From: a phage
Length of the DNA: 64,000 nucleotides
NCBI GenBank assembly: GCA_024911895.1
Contig: GCA_024911895.1_3948.1
Strand: one strand, 5' to 3'
Under the pieces are notes generated by a model. It was not told the DNA's origin, did not search any database, and worked only from the letters and a program-made list of their open reading frames with translations. Positions 40,842 to 59,629 of the stretch are shown piece after piece (position 1 is the stretch's first letter; the number at the start of each line of letters is the position of its first letter). A program made the translations under genes and the position numbers.

Positions 40842-41948
40842 TTACTCAGAGTCTGAGCGAACGTCAACCAGCAGTTGAGGACGTGTGCAGTATGGCAGCA
40901 TGTAAGAGTGAGCTTCGAAGTCAATACCTTCATCACGGTCTTTTTCGTATTCAAATACGTACAACTCCTGACCCAGAGTATTTGCGTAGCCCATCTTCGG
41001 ACATGGAGCGTAAGCTACTTCAAAGATGTTGTTTGCTTCACCAAGCATAGAAACGTTAGGGAAAGCGTGCCCTACACCTACAGTTCCATTCTGAGTAACA
41101 CCATCGATGCTAACCAGAGTATGGGTCTTGCCGCGCTTGTCTTTGAACTTACCGTTGTACTGGACAAACTTAACACCACCGTAGTAGAACGTGTTCATAT
41201 GAGCCTGAACACCATCAGAACCACCAGTTCTCAGAGAGCCAGTAATCTGTTGCCATGCCAGCGGAGTCTGCTGTGCAAGGTATGCGTCACGAATCTTCGG
41301 ATGCTTGGTAAGTTTACTGAAGAAAGTTCTGTCAACAACTACGTGAATCTCTTCACCGTTGATTACAGTACCAGTCTTAGCTTCATCTTCCATGTGCATA
41401 CGTAGGTCTTCGATGTGAGCATCGATATCAGAGTTCGGATTGTCAAGGTCGAAGTAGATAGTCTTCTTAGTTACATCAAACTGTTTGTACAGGTCTGCGT
41501 ACAGAACACCATTAGCATCGATAACTTTACCCTTCAGAGCTTGCATGAACAAGAACTCACGAGTAATATCGAACTTGGTACGAATCTTCATCAGCTTCTT
41601 AGCACGAACGATGGCTTCAGTGGTTAGTTCATTTGCAGTGCCTGGCTGACGTACACCCTGAATCTCGTCAGGAGTAATGCTTTCAACTTCCTTGAAGTAC
41701 ATCATTGGGAAGCTGATTTGACGAACACGCTCAGGAGCACTTGTTTCAGCTTTACGGCTAGTGCGGTCTACAGCATCAAGCAAGCTGATATCCCAATCTG
41801 TCAAATCCATCAGGAAGGTTGTCTGAGTTTGTGGTGCTGAACGGAACAGACCTAAGTTGGAAATATACCCATAAGTATTTGGGATAGACTGGACTTCACC
41901 AGTCAGGTCAGCAAGGAAAAATCTGCTTTTTTCAGAATTAGTCAACAT
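40842..41948 (-). CDS. Major capsid protein (lambda gpE-like arrangement)
   Basis: 368 aa downstream of decoration-like and protease-scaffold genes. Confidence 0.65.
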   Translation of the reverse strand: MLTNSEKSRFFLADLTGEVQSIPNTYGYISNLGLFRSAPQTQTTFLMDLTDWDISLLDAVDRTSRKAETSAPERVRQISFPMMYFKEVESITPDEIQGVRQPGTANELTTEAIVRAKKLMKIRTKFDITREFLFMQALKGKVIDANGVLYADLYKQFDVTKKTIYFDLDNPNSDIDAHIEDLRMHMEDEAKTGTVINGEEIHVVVDRTFFSKLTKHPKIRDAYLAQQTPLAWQQITGSLRTGGSDGVQAHMNTFYYGGVKFVQYNGKFKDKRGKTHTLVSIDGVTQNGTVGVGHAFPNVSMLGEANNIFEVAYAPCPKMGYANTLGQELYVFEYEKDRDEGIDFEAHSYMLPYCTRPQLLVDVRSDSE

Positions 41949-53700: not shown

Positions 53701-55116
53701 TTACCAGATGTAACGGTCAATCATTACTGCTTTGAGCATTACGCTGATTGGGTCAAACTTCTCACCACCAAGCAGAGCTTTTAAAGTGGCTGGAGAGAAC
53801 CCTGATACCATTGCTACACCATTATCCTTAACAGATACTTCGCAAGTGCCATTACGGTTTGCTAAGTACCAGAATACCAGTTGTGGCATTTCGTATCCAG
53901 CTTTTTTGTACTTACTCTGAATTGCTTCAAAGTTTGTACGACCGTTAGCACCATCAACCTGATTGAACTCCATATCGGAGAAGATTATAAGCTTACTTGG
54001 CATATCTTTCTGAGTCAAGTTGTTTCTTTTACCTGTCTCAAGAATACGGTCAAAAGCTGCTTGTAAGTTAGTTGAGCCATACTCAACATGACGCATTACC
54101 TGACGATGACGGTTTCGTAAATCACCACTCAGTTCGATGAAGTGAGGGTTTGTTGAATAAACCATCAACTCATTCTTAAAGCAACCTGTATTGCGTTCTG
54201 CTACATACAAGGCAAGTGATACACCAATATCCAGAGCAGTAATGGAGCCAAAATTCACCCAAGACATTGAACTTGATACATCAGACATACACAAGATGTT
54301 TTCACCTTCTGCCATCCAGTTTGGTAGTGCTTTCCACTGCTCATTAGCAACATCTGCATTACCATGCTTGACAGATTTAATCACATCGTATGGGTAAACG
54401 GCACCAGCATTAATCTTAGCCTCACCTTTTGATAAGGACTCAATGTAAGCTTTGTAACGTTCTCCATCCTTACGGTTAAACAGTTTTTGGTAACGTGCAG
54501 CAGCAAGTGAGGGAACCTTACTGTAGTCAATCTTGCCAAACTCATTAGCAGAGATTTTTTGCTCAACTGTATCAGATAGTGCAGATAACAGTGTGCGGTA
54601 CTCTTTCTCGCTCAAGTTGGCAAACTTGCAGAAACGTTTTACAAACTGCTTATGACGTGGTTTGACTCGTGGTAACCACTTAGCCGCCAAACCTGCTGTT
54701 GCAGGGTCTAGTAATGCTGCTTCTAAATGTTTGAAGGCATCTGTCTCGAAACAAGTACCCACGAAGATTTTGAAGTCATCAAAACGACCAAGTTCTGCAA
54801 TCTTATCCATAATGCGAAGAACCTGTGTAGGCTCTAAAACTTTATCTTCAATTGCTTGAAGCAAAACAGTTCTGAAGGCTTTACGCTCACCCATACCTTC
54901 TCGTACATCTCGCATATGAAGCAAAATACGAACTGCAACATCAACATCCTCACGCAAAGCTTTGTAGAACAGGTCTGGTAAGATTTCTACGTTGCTACGG
55001 CTTGAACCAGCAGCTTTGTAAAAGTCTACAAGAGCAGACATTGATGAAGTATGGTTTACAGCACCATTTTCAGTTCGACCTGCATGAAGGTGCGCATGTT
55101 TAAATAACTCGCTCAT
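53701..55116 (-). CDS. von Willebrand factor A domain protein, Ro60/TROVE-like candidate
   Basis: 471 aa; MIDAS motif CMSDVSSSMS, later IIFSDMEFNQVD and MVSGFSPATLKAL resemble Ro60 vWA segments; helical N-terminal region about 260 aa. Confidence 0.55.
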   Translation of the reverse strand: MSELFKHAHLHAGRTENGAVNHTSSMSALVDFYKAAGSSRSNVEILPDLFYKALREDVDVAVRILLHMRDVREGMGERKAFRTVLLQAIEDKVLEPTQVLRIMDKIAELGRFDDFKIFVGTCFETDAFKHLEAALLDPATAGLAAKWLPRVKPRHKQFVKRFCKFANLSEKEYRTLLSALSDTVEQKISANEFGKIDYSKVPSLAAARYQKLFNRKDGERYKAYIESLSKGEAKINAGAVYPYDVIKSVKHGNADVANEQWKALPNWMAEGENILCMSDVSSSMSWVNFGSITALDIGVSLALYVAERNTGCFKNELMVYSTNPHFIELSGDLRNRHRQVMRHVEYGSTNLQAAFDRILETGKRNNLTQKDMPSKLIIFSDMEFNQVDGANGRTNFEAIQSKYKKAGYEMPQLVFWYLANRNGTCEVSVKDNGVAMVSGFSPATLKALLGGEKFDPISVMLKAVMIDRYIW

Positions 55117-55960: not shown

Positions 55961-56194
55961 ATGTGTAGTTCCCAATTAGAAATCGCAGATATTATAGATT
56001 TATATCAAACTGCAAAGAGTCATGGCTATATAACCTCAATTGGAAAGAATAGTCACTATGATGCTTTGACTGGAATGTATTTCAGGGCAATGGCTCAATC
56101 TAGTGAACAACACTTAATGGTTTCTTCCAGTGAGTTTACTTCGTTTCTCTATTGCAGCAAAATTATAAATCGCAGGAGAACTGAAAAATGTTAA
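55961..56194 (+). CDS. Hypothetical protein (77 aa)
   Basis: ORF. Confidence 0.35.
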   Translation: MCSSQLEIADIIDLYQTAKSHGYITSIGKNSHYDALTGMYFRAMAQSSEQHLMVSSSEFTSFLYCSKIINRRRTEKC

Positions 56195-56778
56195 CAGTAA
56201 GTTTTAATTACAATAGTGATGGCTCTGTATCAATTAATTCACCTTATGCAAATGACCTATTGAAAGAATTAGTTAATCAGTGTGATAGAGGTCTTCACTA
56301 TGTTCCAAATTCTTTTAAACAGAAGACTATTGCTAATAACTTGATGCGTGTAACAGTAACGTCATCGAATCCAAATTATGACTTTGATAGTGAAAGCCCG
56401 TACTCATTAGTTGCGCTTGGAGAGAGCAGCCAATTCAAACTTGTTTGCCACGACTCAGAAACATTCCTTAAGGTATTTTCCAACCTTATCCATAATAATA
56501 AGTACAGCTACGTTGATGGTAGTGTAAATTTCTATCCAGCAAACTATACATGTTTGTTGGTTGATAATATGAGAAAAAGTAAGCAAGAGCCTACGGAAAT
56601 TTCATTTGATGTGAACTCTAGTCCAGATGCAGAAACAAGTAAGAACTTTGATATGAGTTACGCATTGTCACTCAGTAAGAAATCCGAGTTCATTGATTAT
56701 GTCAATGGATTTGGTTTTAAGTTTGATGAGAGTATGAATCTTAAAAAACTTAAGAACCTACTTAAGACCAAAGCTTAA
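56188..56778 (+). CDS. Hypothetical protein (196 aa)
   Basis: ORF. Confidence 0.4.
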   Translation: MLTVSFNYNSDGSVSINSPYANDLLKELVNQCDRGLHYVPNSFKQKTIANNLMRVTVTSSNPNYDFDSESPYSLVALGESSQFKLVCHDSETFLKVFSNLIHNNKYSYVDGSVNFYPANYTCLLVDNMRKSKQEPTEISFDVNSSPDAETSKNFDMSYALSLSKKSEFIDYVNGFGFKFDESMNLKKLKNLLKTKA

Positions 56779-56825
56779 GTGTGAATAGGGGCTTATGCCC
56801 CTTTAACTATTTATAAGGATATTTA

Positions 56826-57197
56826 ATGAAAGCTAAGAGTGCAAAAGACTTTTATTGCTTCCTACAATCCTATATCAATTCCGTGCAAAATGGTGAAAGG
56901 TACAACCTTAATGATGTTATCCCAACACCTTTGACATGGAGACTCAGTAAATGGCCTGAAGAAGATATTACACCAACAATCGAACAGCGTACCTACAAAC
57001 CTGAAATCAATATTCCAGACTCTGAGAATCTATTATACCCAATGTTCCATATTGTTGGTCTTGGAAGATTCCTTATGGATATCCAGTATGTAATTGGTAA
57101 AGGTTATAAGGTTAAAGGTATTGTCGTTGGTGATGTATCTCCGAATCACAAAGGTTATTTTAGACTAAACGCACATTTAGAGGCTGAAAAGAAATGA
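56826..57197 (+). CDS. Hypothetical protein, paralog of N-terminal domain of the Ig-like protein
   Basis: Shared FMDxQY, KPxxxxPxSxxLLY segments with 57194-58327 N-terminus; ATGA overlap. Confidence 0.45.
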   Translation: MKAKSAKDFYCFLQSYINSVQNGERYNLNDVIPTPLTWRLSKWPEEDITPTIEQRTYKPEINIPDSENLLYPMFHIVGLGRFLMDIQYVIGKGYKVKGIVVGDVSPNHKGYFRLNAHLEAEKK

Positions 57198-58327
57198 TTA
57201 AAGCAAAGACTTACCCAGACTTCAAAGAGTTTGTGAAGGGCTTCATTGCAAACGTAAAGGCTGGTAAGAGATATGATTTTAGAACATATCAAGAGGCTAT
57301 TTTACCACTCACCTATAGTTCGTATTGGCCTGAAGCTGATATTGCAGAAGTTAAGAAGTTTGACTACAAACCAGACTACAAAGTTCCATTTAGTGATGAG
57401 TTGCTTTACAGCGTTGGTGCTCAAATGAGAACTTCTGACTTCTTCATGGACTTACAATATGCAATTATCAATGGTAAAGACGTTGATACAGTTTATTGTG
57501 AATGGTTGGCAAGGGTTAAACCATTCTCAATGTTGAATGCTAAGTTGAAGGATGCTATCAAGCCACCAGCAATTACTCAGCAACCAACAGGTCAAACAGT
57601 CAATGAGGGTGGCACACTTACTCTAAGCATTCTAGCAACTAACGCCACTGGATATCAGTGGAAAAAGGATGGTGAGGACATCCCTAGCGCCAATTCTGCA
57701 ACTTATACAAAACAGGCAGTAGCACCTTCTGACGCTGGTTCATACACTTGTGTTGTATCTGGAGATGGTGGAACAAGTGTTACCTCAGATGCAGCAACAG
57801 TGACTGTGAACGCACTACCTGTGATTACCAAGCAACCTTCTAACCAGACTATTAATGAAGGTGGAAACATCAACTTAGCAGTTACTGCAACAGGTGCAAC
57901 TGGTTACCAATGGAAGAAAGATGGCTCTGACATTCCTTCGGCTACAGAAGCTACCTATAGCAAGTCTGGCGCTCTGCCAGCAGATGCAGGTTCATACACT
58001 TGCGTCGTAACAGGTGCAGGTGGTTCTGTCACTTCTAGCCCTGCAACCATCACTGTGAAAGCTTTACCAGTTATCACTCAACAGCCAACCAATCAAGAAA
58101 TCACTGAAGGTGAGACCTTAACGCTGAATGTTGTGGCAACAGGTGCGACAGGTTACCAATGGAAGAAAGGTGAGGAAGACATCCTCGATGCAACTACTGC
58201 AACTTACACCAAAGAAGGTGCAACCGCTGCTGATGCAGGAAGCTACACCTGTGTAGTTACTGGTGCAGGTGGCTCTGTAACATCCAATGCAGCAACAGTT
58301 ACAGTTAACCCAGCAGGGGAGGCATAA
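57194..58327 (+). CDS. Protein with three tandem Ig-like domains
   Basis: Three repeats of about 82 aa each containing ATGYQWKKDG...AGSYTCVVTGAGGS; N-terminal 130-aa unrelated domain. Confidence 0.6.
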   Translation: MIKAKTYPDFKEFVKGFIANVKAGKRYDFRTYQEAILPLTYSSYWPEADIAEVKKFDYKPDYKVPFSDELLYSVGAQMRTSDFFMDLQYAIINGKDVDTVYCEWLARVKPFSMLNAKLKDAIKPPAITQQPTGQTVNEGGTLTLSILATNATGYQWKKDGEDIPSANSATYTKQAVAPSDAGSYTCVVSGDGGTSVTSDAATVTVNALPVITKQPSNQTINEGGNINLAVTATGATGYQWKKDGSDIPSATEATYSKSGALPADAGSYTCVVTGAGGSVTSSPATITVKALPVITQQPTNQEITEGETLTLNVVATGATGYQWKKGEEDILDATTATYTKEGATAADAGSYTCVVTGAGGSVTSNAATVTVNPAGEA

Positions 58328-58791
58328 TGCAACTCTCAAGAAAAGGTTTAGAAGCTATTAAGTTCTTCGAAGGTCTGGAGTTAGAGGCTTACGAAGACTC
58401 TGCCGGAATCCCTACAATTGGGTATGGAACAATCCGTATTGACGGAAAACCTGTTAAGATGGGTATGAAAATTACTGCTGAACAAGCTGAACAGTATCTT
58501 CTTGCAGATGTTGAGAAGTTCGTTGCAGCAGTGAATAAAGCTATCAAGGTTCCAACTTCTCAGAACGAGTTCGATGCACTTGTAAGTGAAACATACAACA
58601 TCGGTATCACAGCTATGCAGGATTCTACATTTATCAAGCGCCACAATGCTGGTAATAAGGTCGGTTGTGCAGAAGCTATGCAGTGGTGGAACAAGGTTAC
58701 AGTCAAAGGTAAGAAGGTCACTTCAAACGGCCTGAAAAACAGACGTAGAATGGAAGCTGACATTTATCTTGACAGTGTATATCCAAAGTAA
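58327..58791 (+). CDS. Endolysin, GH24 lysozyme (T4 e / lambda R-like)
   Basis: FEGLELEAYEDSAGIPTIGYGT catalytic-Glu region and overall length 154 aa. Confidence 0.75.
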   Translation: MQLSRKGLEAIKFFEGLELEAYEDSAGIPTIGYGTIRIDGKPVKMGMKITAEQAEQYLLADVEKFVAAVNKAIKVPTSQNEFDALVSETYNIGITAMQDSTFIKRHNAGNKVGCAEAMQWWNKVTVKGKKVTSNGLKNRRRMEADIYLDSVYPK

Positions 58792-58800
58792 TATCTTCAT

Positions 58801-58824
58801 AGGCTCCTTCGGGAGCCTTTTTTA
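58801..58824 (+). terminator. Rho-independent terminator after endolysin
   Basis: GGCTCC-TTCG-GGAGCC followed by TTTTTTAT. Confidence 0.65.
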
Positions 58825-58842
58825 TTTTCTAAGGAGAAAACT

Positions 58843-59241
58843 ATGAAACTTTGGGCTAGTGACTTTGGAACTTTTAAGTATACTCGCAATGGCTCGCTTG
58901 TACGCATTGTTGGGAACAATGTAGTTTCAAGAGGTGACAAGGTGTATACACGGTTTACTGTAGAGCTTGTTGAACTGTCACCTATTGAGTCTGTGAACAA
59001 TGGTCTGTTCAAGTTTGAGACTTACAATGTCAATGAGCATGGACAATTCAACCCTCTTGGCGAAAGTGGACTTGATATTATTTCAGAGCACCCATTGACA
59101 AAAGAGCAACTTGCAGGTTACTATAAAACTGTTCTGGAAAGGCAGTTAGCAACACATGAACAAGAAGCTAACTACCATCTACAGCATTGCGAAAATTTAA
59201 GAGCAAAAATCGAACAAGCAGAGAGAGGTTTTTATGAATAA
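58843..59241 (+). CDS. Hypothetical protein (132 aa)
   Basis: ORF with AGGAGA upstream. Confidence 0.4.
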   Translation: MKLWASDFGTFKYTRNGSLVRIVGNNVVSRGDKVYTRFTVELVELSPIESVNNGLFKFETYNVNEHGQFNPLGESGLDIISEHPLTKEQLAGYYKTVLERQLATHEQEANYHLQHCENLRAKIEQAERGFYE

Positions 59242-59629
59242 TAACAGTCATATCCACGTTAAAGTTGATGTCAGCCGTTACAGCGAAAATGAGGAACTAG
59301 ACCTGAAAGATGCTCTTCTCTTTGAGAAGAATGGTAATCTCCATTTGCATTTTGAAGGTACAAACACATATCTCCACAGATGTCGAGATGATGCAGATGG
59401 TTGCCCTGTTTTTGCTTGGTATAATTTAGAGTTTCCTCTTTATGCAATCCACTACCCAGATGGTGGAGAAGACTGGACAACTCAATCAATCTTTGATGAG
59501 CTTAATGGTGTTCCTGTTGAGCAAGAAGAGCAAGAACCTGTTGAACTAACCTTCACTTTCATCAAAGAAGAGAAAGTAGGTGACTTGTCAGTAACTGAAG
59601 CAATTCAAGTCTCACAGGTGATTCGTTAA
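59234..59629 (+). CDS. Hypothetical protein (131 aa)
   Basis: ORF. Confidence 0.4.
   Translation: MNNNSHIHVKVDVSRYSENEELDLKDALLFEKNGNLHLHFEGTNTYLHRCRDDADGCPVFAWYNLEFPLYAIHYPDGGEDWTTQSIFDELNGVPVEQEEQEPVELTFTFIKEEKVGDLSVTEAIQVSQVIR

Follow-up and report, generated by a model that had tools for sequence, protein, structure and literature searches.

A three-Ig Hex-Dec gene in a Felixounavirus and the stand-alone paralogue of its capsid-binding domain

The capsid decoration fibre Hex-Dec of Felix O1-like phages is known from two cryo-EM studies, that of Escherichia phage JohannRWettstein (Bas63), where the protein is chain S of PDB entry 9NCF (PMC12609058), and that of Shigella phage Sf14, a Mooglevirus, where it is named gp20 and is chain S of entries 9C2D and 9C3A (PMC11821841). 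In both phages the N-terminal domain, the capsid-binding domain (CapBD), sits in the centres of capsid hexamers; it is bound as a monomer and in quasi-3-fold or facet-edge hexamers only, and the Ig domains are disordered (PMC11821841, PMC12609058). The other hexamers of Bas63 are without reported density (PMC12609058), and in Sf14 the CapBD residues R79 and R107 form salt bridges to D221 of the capsid protein (PMC11821841). Mass spectrometry has placed the protein in virions, as Gp36 of Felix O1 in a 2010 paper (14 peptides, 44% coverage) and as gp20 in purified Sf14 particles (PMC11821841). The 2010 Felix O1 paper and both structure papers point out that the structural module does not include this gene (PMC12609058, PMC11821841).

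The same two structure papers propose T4 Hoc as a functional analogue (PMC11821841, PMC12609058), with the qualification that the domain order is reversed, the anchor topology distinct and the sequence similarity minimal (PMC12609058). The likeness consists of a monomer at the hexamer centre, with a small globular anchor and a string of Ig domains, that serves as a non-essential acidic fibre; the difference is that the anchor is C-terminal in Hoc and N-terminal in Hex-Dec. The T5 protein pb10 carries a single Ig-like domain. It binds the centre of the capsid hexamer (PMC5292684), and the domain by which it binds the capsid is N-terminal, as in Hex-Dec (PMC11821841).

The window analysed here, a stretch of 64,000 nucleotides, comes from a Felixounavirus: its identity to Salmonella phage SeKF_63 and to Escherichia phage ECML-1 is about 96%, and many Felixounavirus genomes match it at 95-96% in DNA. 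The relevant features are:

40842..41948, minus strand: major capsid protein gene, docking partner of Hex-Dec (9c2d_A, E = 6.6e-242; 9ncf_A, E = 6.5e-235; phrog_29)
56787..56802, plus strand: hairpin AGGGGC-UUAU-GCCCCU with a weak U tract, between a gp43-like gene and the paralogue
56826..57197, plus strand: stand-alone 123-aa paralogue of the Hex-Dec CapBD (by identity to Hex-Dec)
57194..58327, plus strand: Hex-Dec, 377 aa, Hoc-like hexamer decoration protein (matches to 9ncf_S and 9c2d_S)
57194..57562, plus strand: CapBD, aa 1-123 (alignment to 9c2d_S)
57563..58312, plus strand: three tandem I-set Ig-like domains (Pfam, AlphaFold2), namely Ig1, aa 124-207, nt 57563-57814; Ig2, aa 208-290, nt 57815-58063; Ig3, aa 291-373, nt 58064-58312
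58327..58791, plus strand: endolysin, a GH24 phage lysozyme of 154 aa (PF00959, E = 8.2e-41; phrog_7, E = 8.1e-58)
58801..58818, plus strand: strong intrinsic terminator at the end of the three-gene unit, called by the terminator scan (-12.9 kcal/mol, z = -4.2, with a U run downstream)

The 377-aa protein is identified by its sequence as Hex-Dec. A phmmer search of the PDB matched it to 9ncf_S (E = 2.4e-294) and 9c2d_S (E = 3e-168) in end-to-end alignments from residue 1, and it matches phrog_3995 at 1.1e-206; its mass is 39.7 kDa and its pI 4.3. The Bas63 protein belongs to the same family and genus and has a nearly identical CapBD, and its Ig1, Ig2 and last Ig domain align almost residue by residue with those of the window. 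With four Ig domains the Bas63 protein is 460 aa long, against three and 377 aa in the window; one clean unit of 83 aa, Ig3 of Bas63, accounts for the difference, and in that phage, too, more than 10 kb separates the gene from the structural module (PMC12609058). Sf14 gp20 (372 aa) has the same CapBD and three Ig domains, but Sf14 belongs to a different genus and its Ig domains are more divergent (for Ig1, 71% identity to Moogle's). The residues R79 and R107 (seen in the translation) and D221 of the major capsid protein (seen in the alignment) are all shared with Sf14. From capsid-binding domains that are 84-98% identical we infer that the protein of the window binds the capsid. The same gene goes under the names phrog_3995, Felix O1 ORF36, wV8 gp41, Sf14 gp20 and Bas63 Hex-Dec.

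An earlier, sequence-only reading of this DNA had described three tandem W...YxC repeats of about 82 aa in the 377-aa protein, and these were found where it had placed them, as units of 83-84 aa that each contain the motifs GYQWKK and GSYTCVV. The units are 65-70% identical to one another in protein and just 60-65% in DNA, and the repeat is therefore visible mainly at the protein level; Tandem Repeats Finder reported no DNA-level array at the Ig repeats. Three stretches of the protein match each of the Pfam families Ig_3 (1.3e-32), Ig_2 (4.9e-28) and I-set (1.3e-24). Structure prediction, the check that had been proposed, gave an AlphaFold2 model with a mean pLDDT of 91.5, in which three beta-sandwich domains reach about 95 and the CapBD region about 76-93 except for one loop, and the PDB folds that this model matches best belong to proteins with Ig domains in tandem: LRIG1, Robo and titin I67-I69 (TM 0.48/0.61). 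Ig1 also matches two PDB chains named 'Decoration protein', 5lxk_A (6e-12) and 8zvi_a (4.2e-12), and no such match falls in the CapBD; 5lxk_A we take to be the Ig-like domain of pb10. Matches to 'Hoc-like' PHROGs cover the Ig region only, from residue ~120 onward. Together with the N-terminal anchor and the distinct topology, this argues that Hex-Dec works like Hoc without being a member of the Hoc family.

The sequence-only reading had thus been right to propose a Hoc-like virion decoration, given the position of the homologues in capsid hexamers and the presence of Felix O1 Gp36 and Sf14 gp20 in particles. It had set against itself absence from virions and lack of a predicted Ig fold; the fold is predicted, and the homologues are in virions. 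The number of Ig copies ranges from 1 to 4 within the genus and changes by clean indels of about 250 nt. The main feature of this locus is already known, as a further three-Ig allele of a published decoration protein: the presence of that protein in virions has been on record since 2010, and papers of 2025 cover its structure, where it binds the capsid, how its Ig copy number varies and that its gene lies away from the structural module. The sole undescribed element is the small upstream copy of the capsid-anchoring domain, which neither structure paper mentions (PMC11821841, PMC12609058).

The paralogue, Hex-Dec and endolysin genes form a compact, overlapping block flanked by two hairpins; the arrangement, which is seen again in over 230 phage records, is not a chance pattern. 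The stop codon of the paralogue overlaps the start of Hex-Dec (ATGA). A frameshift fusion of the two at this overlap was considered and rejected, since GAAAAGAAATGA contains no X XXY YYZ slippery heptamer, and simple translational coupling is accordingly preferred. The start of the endolysin gene overlaps the Hex-Dec stop by one base (TAATG), in line with the earlier remark that the endolysin follows immediately. The PF00959 score of the endolysin is 139.7 bits against a gathering cut-off of 22.3, and its sequence has the triad pattern E15-x8-D24-x5-T30, E-x8-D-x5-T being the catalytic pattern of GH24 lysozymes. The upstream hairpin (-11.9 kcal/mol, z = -2.5) was not called by the consensus terminator scan; its counterpart is labelled a rho-independent terminator in the annotation of the relatives wV8 and AYO145A. 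A sigma-70 promoter scan gave 6 matches, against 9.7 in shuffled sequence, and none upstream of the paralogue. The sequence ACTATTTATAAGG, which lies upstream of the paralogue, was discarded as a late-promoter motif, with 4 occurrences in the window and 2.7 expected by chance.

The structural module occupies 24,600-47,661 on the minus strand, next to a tRNA cluster at 48,090-53,535. About 9.5 kb separates the three-gene block from the terminase gene, which is on the opposite strand, and the major capsid protein gene is about 15 kb from the Hex-Dec gene, again on the opposite strand. Hex-Dec is directly upstream of the endolysin gene in Felix O1, wV8, Moogle, SUSP2, Erwinia phage MM7 and a Hafnia phage, and the adjacency extends to Kolesnikvirus; MM7 and the Hafnia phage keep this synteny without the paralogue. 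The order therefore appears to be an ancestral synteny of the Ounavirinae that was inherited here. The sequence-only reading had called a location outside the structural operon and beside a lysis gene unusual. The gene does lie outside the module; the location had already been published, and the adjacency was apparently inherited.

The earlier view of the 123-aa upstream gene as a paralogue of the N-terminal domain holds as well: the product aligns to residues 2-100 of Hex-Dec with 36% identity (E = 1e-16). In other collections it is phrog_4463, Felix O1 ORF37 and wV8 gp42. A phmmer search of the PDB with the paralogue returned 9ncf_S and 9c2d_S only. Its AlphaFold2 model is of moderate confidence (pLDDT 69), and in a Foldseek search of the PDB this model has significant matches only to the same two chains, 9c2d_S and 9ncf_S (TM 0.59-0.63); in BFVD it matches only Ounavirinae proteins. 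At the positions of the two anchoring arginines the paralogue has other residues: G78 stands opposite R79 and is Gly in all aligned paralogues, and N, H, Q or R stands opposite R107. The loss of R79 is not decisive, because the Hex-Dec of the Hafnia phage also has Gly at position 79. Among the Moogleviruses examined (Moogle; Sf13 and Sf15), the paralogue gene is directly upstream of Hex-Dec. In a divergent metagenomic phage with the same gene triplet, identity to the window is 44% for the paralogue and 59% for the CapBD, and the overlapping stop and start codons are kept. With dN/dS of 0.09-0.16 at dS 0.7-1.5, the gene is evidently under purifying selection. An unbroken reading frame is found in 233 of 253 records, and motifs such as LLYPMFHIVGLG are nearly invariant across the aligned paralogues. 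One lineage of 19 database records shares a deletion of about 223 bp together with loss of the paralogue start codon; the phages mio and REP11 are examples of this natural deletion. The paralogue is not among the reported virion proteins of Felix O1, nor among those given in the available part of the VpaE1 report; this absence argues only weakly, since the Felix O1 table is limited to the top 17 proteins at a coverage of at least 25%.

Other readings of the 377-aa protein have been put on record or suggest themselves from its position. Most GenBank records, and PHROG 3995, make it a tail protein, under labels such as 'tail protein', 'putative tail protein' and 'HK97 major tail subunit'; Felix O1 Gp36 was named 'major tail protein' in 2010, and some PHROG matches are to major tail proteins, by way of the Ig region. 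This label is almost certainly wrong. In two independent cryo-EM structures the N-terminal domain occupies the centres of capsid hexamers, the tail-protein PHROG matches begin only at residue ~96 and are in essence matches to the shared Ig modules, and the authors of the Bas63 study regard the label as a mis-annotation (PMC12609058). A tail location was rejected here, the homologues having been modelled in the capsid asymmetric unit. The placement of the gene beside the lysin and away from the head genes would be accounted for if the Ig protein, with or without the paralogue, were a lysis accessory that partners the endolysin, for example in targeting the envelope or peptidoglycan. The tight TAATG overlap, the single terminator-bounded block and the conservation of the adjacency throughout the Ounavirinae would fit such a role, but we consider it very improbable: Hex-Dec is a stoichiometric capsid component in the homologues, the sequence consists entirely of CapBD and Ig domains with no signal peptide or transmembrane segment, and viable, plaque-forming isolates exist with a truncated Ig array (Z31) or a deleted paralogue. 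Timing in Felix O1 also speaks against it, as ORF35, the lysin, has its peak at 25 min, whereas ORF36 and ORF37 reach theirs at 60 min, along with the morphogenesis genes. No evidence of a functional link between Hex-Dec and lysis was found.

The paralogue, too, allows other readings. It could be a second hexamer decoration protein, overlooked so far, that occupies the 20 true 3-fold hexamers which Hex-Dec avoids. Its predicted fold is that of the CapBD, it is expressed late and coupled in translation to Hex-Dec, it has been under purifying selection across a long divergence, and the changed residues at the quasi-3-fold-specific arginines could retarget it. Icosahedral averaging in cryo-EM blurs a monomer on a 3-fold axis, as would happen to such a protein. 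This reading is nonetheless unlikely, in view of the lack of density in the other hexamers of Bas63 (PMC12609058), the asymmetric map of Sf14 at 4.5 Å, in which protrusions on quasi-3-fold hexamers are described as the second decoration protein (PMC11821841), the virion protein lists of Felix O1 and (as far as available) VpaE1, and the loss of the gene in the lineage of 19 records. That the gene is instead a functionless, decaying leftover of a duplicated Hex-Dec gene stripped of its Ig array seems less likely still. There is a decayed copy in one lineage, the natural CapBD-only Hex-Dec of Z31 shows a possible route to such a remnant, and the paralogue evolves faster than the CapBD; but the low dN/dS, the intact frame in most records, the near-invariant motifs and the retention of the gene with its overlapping stop and start at 44% identity all count against decay. 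A tentative preference goes to a dispensable factor, either non-structural or in transient interaction with hexamers or with Hex-Dec during head maturation. The more specific version, in which the product is a capsid-interacting factor, present transiently or at sub-stoichiometric levels in hexamer centres (of procapsids, or the 20 true 3-fold hexamers) or acting as a partner of Hex-Dec that sets its site-selective loading, is possible but doubtful.

The explanation that best covers the locus as a whole, and which we regard as very probable, combines the identity of Hex-Dec, its anchoring in hexamers and its Ig fibre with the layout of the block and the origin of the paralogue as an old partial duplicate. 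As it does in close homologues, the N-terminal CapBD of about 120 aa would plug as a monomer into the centres of the pentamer-proximal (quasi-3-fold) hexamers of a T=9 capsid, at one copy per asymmetric unit. Arg79 and Arg107 would anchor it to Asp221 of the major capsid protein, as in Sf14, all three residues being conserved here. The three I-set domains are predicted to project from this anchor as a flexible acidic fibre. An adhesive role of the fibre is proposed in both structure papers (PMC11821841, PMC12609058), and the analogy with T4 Hoc suggests an accessory, non-essential protein through which particles may aggregate or may adhere weakly to surfaces, mucus or bacteria; an mBio 2025 paper on a Citrobacter rodentium Felixounavirus in the gut contains no Ig- or mucus-binding data. 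The paralogue would be an old tandem partial duplicate of the CapBD that has kept the fold and is probably expressed late, together with Hex-Dec.

For annotation, the analysis implies that the 'tail protein' labels carried by the Hex-Dec gene, and sometimes by its small neighbour, are wrong and spreading. For phage biology, the interest lies in the paralogue. It is conserved, late and coupled in translation to Hex-Dec, it copies a capsid anchor without the Ig domains, and a lineage that has lost it serves as a natural knock-out; it offers an easy system for asking how a monomeric decoration protein picks one class of hexamer over another. If it is indeed a capsid-interacting factor, capsid decoration would have a small, paralogue-derived regulator, long conserved yet dispensable.

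Hex-Dec is already known and structurally characterised; of the locus that encodes it, the paralogue of the capsid-binding domain at its N-terminus (CapBD) is the only part outside the published accounts searched. The phage is a Felix O1-like myophage; over the region 56000-59300 it shares 96% identity with Salmonella phage SeKF_63 and with Escherichia phage ECML-1, and 95.5% with wV8, and at least 80% of this region is covered in 222 phage records. As read from the window, three genes overlap in a block flanked by hairpins, the paralogue and Hex-Dec meeting in ATGA and Hex-Dec and the endolysin in TAATG:

24600-47661, minus strand: structural module, from tail fibres to large terminase
40842-41948, minus strand: capsid protein gene
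48090-53535: tRNA cluster, 25 tRNAs
56188-56778, plus strand: gene upstream of the block, 196 aa (phrog_4034)
56787-56802: hairpin 5' of the block, weak U tract, labelled a terminator in wV8 and AYO145A
56826-57197, plus strand: paralogue, 123 aa
57194-58327, plus strand: Hex-Dec, 377 aa
58327-58791, plus strand: endolysin, 154 aa, GH24 lysozyme (PF00959, 8.2e-41)
58801-58818: strong intrinsic terminator ending the block

The upstream 196-aa product gave no Pfam match. A counterpart of similar size (195-207 aa) lies at the same position in all Ounavirinae loci examined, including those of Erwinia and Hafnia phages, with homology demonstrated among Felixounavirus, Mooglevirus and Suspvirus alone.

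Hex-Dec carries three tandem units of 83-84 aa (aa 124-207, 208-290 and 291-373), pairwise 65-70% identical and each containing GYQWKK and GSYTCVV. Pfam finds Ig_3 (1.3e-32), Ig_2 (4.9e-28) and I-set (1.3e-24), in three stretches apiece. An AlphaFold2 model made from a small alignment (mean pLDDT 91.5) shows an alpha/beta N-terminal domain and then three beta-sandwiches, and its top PDB matches are tandem Ig proteins, for example titin I67-I69, Robo and LRIG1. Structure prediction, a check proposed in the sequence-only reading, agrees with the three Ig-like repeats claimed there. In a PDB sequence search, Hex-Dec aligned from residue 1 with two cryo-EM chains, 9NCF chain S ('Immunoglobulin-like domain protein', 460 aa; E = 2.4e-294) and 9C2D/9C3A chain S ('Tail protein / Putative tail protein', 372 aa; E = 3e-168). 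The former is part of the Escherichia phage Bas63 capsid (PMC12609058), whose authors consider the 'tail protein' label a mis-annotation, and 9C2D shows the Shigella phage Sf14 capsid (PMC11821841). Both homologues, Sf14 gp20 and Bas63 'Hex-Dec', are monomeric, Hoc-like decoration proteins (PMC11821841, PMC12609058), and the earlier suggestion of Hoc-like decoration was right.

In Sf14 and Bas63 the N-terminal CapBD of ~118 aa is held at the hexamer centre; in the T=9 shell, binding is confined to the pentamer-proximal quasi-3-fold hexamers, with one copy per asymmetric unit, and the Ig domains project outward and are disordered (PMC11821841, PMC12609058). In Sf14, gp20 is salt-bridged through Arg79 and Arg107 to capsid Asp221 (PMC11821841). 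The residues of this contact are conserved in the window: Hex-Dec holds R79 and R107, and the capsid protein, near-identical to 9c2d_A and 9ncf_A, has D221. Virion presence has likewise been shown for a homologue, Felix O1 Gp36, a two-Ig allele of 31.6 kDa: CsCl-purified particles yielded 14 of its peptides, at 44% coverage (2010 genome paper). The acidic Ig fibre (pI 4.3) would, by its proposed functional likeness to T4 Hoc, act in weak adhesion or aggregation.

A position outside the structural operon and directly before the endolysin had also been claimed, and both statements hold. The Hex-Dec gene lies on the strand opposite to the structural module, the terminase gene being ~9.5 kb and the capsid gene ~15 kb away, and the Bas63 gene is >10 kb outside its module (PMC12609058); virion presence and out-of-module location had both been published before. 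Felixounavirus, Mooglevirus and Suspvirus share the order gp43-like gene, Hex-Dec, endolysin, which also occurs in Kolesnikvirus (Erwinia phage MM7), a Hafnia phage and a divergent 87-kb metagenomic scaffold. The place beside the endolysin appears to be inherited synteny. By RT-PCR in Felix O1, whose record has ORF35 as endolysin, ORF36 as Hex-Dec and ORF37 as paralogue, ORF36 and ORF37 are of the late class, with a maximum at 60 min together with the morphogenesis genes, and ORF35 peaks at 25 min. No pointer to a lysis function of Hex-Dec was found. Upstream, a 471-aa protein (53701-55116, minus strand; DUF2828 and DUF7788; phrog_850 'RNA-binding protein') adjoins the tRNA cluster, and this putative RNA-binding protein and the tRNA island may be functionally paired.

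The CapBD family is tiny: clustered at 50% identity, it makes up 12 clusters in a set of 1.84 billion proteins. C-terminally the domain is joined to I-set Ig arrays, to further Ig-like or beta-rich modules (BFVD calls the homologue from Erwinia phiEa104 'BIG2 domain-containing') or to a disordered tail rich in Lys. These fusions, with family members of 153 aa (P0060) and 204-206 aa (P0057-P0059) as cases in point, suggest a modular anchor-plus-display design.

Ig number varies as well. The window's Hex-Dec differs cleanly from that of Bas63 in lacking one 83-aa Ig unit, its Ig3 corresponding to Bas63 Ig4, and among close relatives the locus is longer or shorter by ~250 nt, consistent with the 1-4 Ig domains of the genus (PMC12609058). 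Against 57563-58312, phages AN17P8, DaR-2019b, vB_Si_DR094 and tootiki (93-95% DNA identity) show clean ~250-nt steps, equal to 2, 3 or 4 Ig domains. DNA identity between the repeats is only 60-65%, and the steps point to frequent unequal recombination between them. Shigella phage Z31, of the lineage that has lost the paralogue, has Hex-Dec cut to CapBD plus 12 residues (134 aa; L002 2498-3070), with a 55-aa Ig-fragment ORF left over. The truncation may be real, giving a natural decoration protein that has no Ig domains, or an artefact of sequencing; it shows a route to an Ig-less copy.

The paralogue (phrog_4463) is 36% identical to Hex-Dec residues 2-100 (E = 1e-16), as expected from the kinship with the N-terminal domain that the sequence-only reading had proposed. 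A PDB sequence search matched only 9ncf_S and 9c2d_S; these were also the only significant PDB matches by Foldseek (TM about 0.6) of an AF2 model with pLDDT 69 and pTM 0.69, and in BFVD it matches solely Ounavirinae proteins. Of 253 phage records, 233 have the gene intact. Its range is limited to Felixounavirus, Mooglevirus, Suspvirus and a single divergent metagenomic lineage, and it is absent at the Kolesnikvirus and Hafnia phage loci. In the metagenomic lineage, identity to the window's own counterparts is 44% for the paralogue and 59% for CapBD, and each clusters with its own kind. Given this range and grouping, the simplest history would be one old tandem partial duplication. That lineage's scaffold (ERZ28599557, 87 kb; L012 4001-5726) represents an unclassified, divergent Ounavirinae-like phage in which the triplet is retained and its junctions overlap: paralogue (122 aa), Hex-Dec (298 aa), lysozyme. 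A 'Staphylococcus phage SA1' record among the Felix O1-like genomes, its paralogue 99% identical, is probably a mislabelled host or contaminant genome. Neither 'paralog', 'duplicat' nor the neighbouring gene numbers occur in PMC11821841 or PMC12609058, and a broader literature search on the paralogue found nothing more.

At the anchoring-arginine positions of Hex-Dec, the paralogue has Gly78 (in every paralogue aligned) and N/H/Q/R107. The missing arginine is not decisive, since Gly occupies the first of these positions in Hafnia phage Hex-Dec too. That the paralogue is a hidden decoration of the 3-fold hexamers is unlikely: the second hexamer class of Bas63 is without density (PMC12609058), and the virion proteins reported for Felix O1 and VpaE1 do not include the paralogue. 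A decaying relic is less probable still. In 19 records (REP5-12, Tf, fBSPA4, fKMPT1, CECAV_FGS030, mio, EcF-vB, two of SP116, Z31, P54 and CECAV_041) the gene has lost its start codon and, internally, the same ~223 bp, the decayed copy lying at 2306-2497 of the REP11 locus (L003); in the remaining records the deletion junction was matched as two pieces spanning 464 nt. The dN/dS of 0.09-0.16 at dS 0.7-1.5 (CapBD, 0.02-0.11) indicates that the paralogue is under purifying selection.

The 19 records with a decayed copy, one lineage of Felixounaviruses isolated on E. coli, Shigella and Salmonella, show that the paralogue is dispensable for propagation. Speculatively, and at low confidence, it may be a dispensable factor, either non-structural or transient, whose partners during head maturation are the hexamers or Hex-Dec. 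What is left over is the paralogue, a modest loose end open to testing, for which the deletion lineage is a ready-made natural knock-out set.
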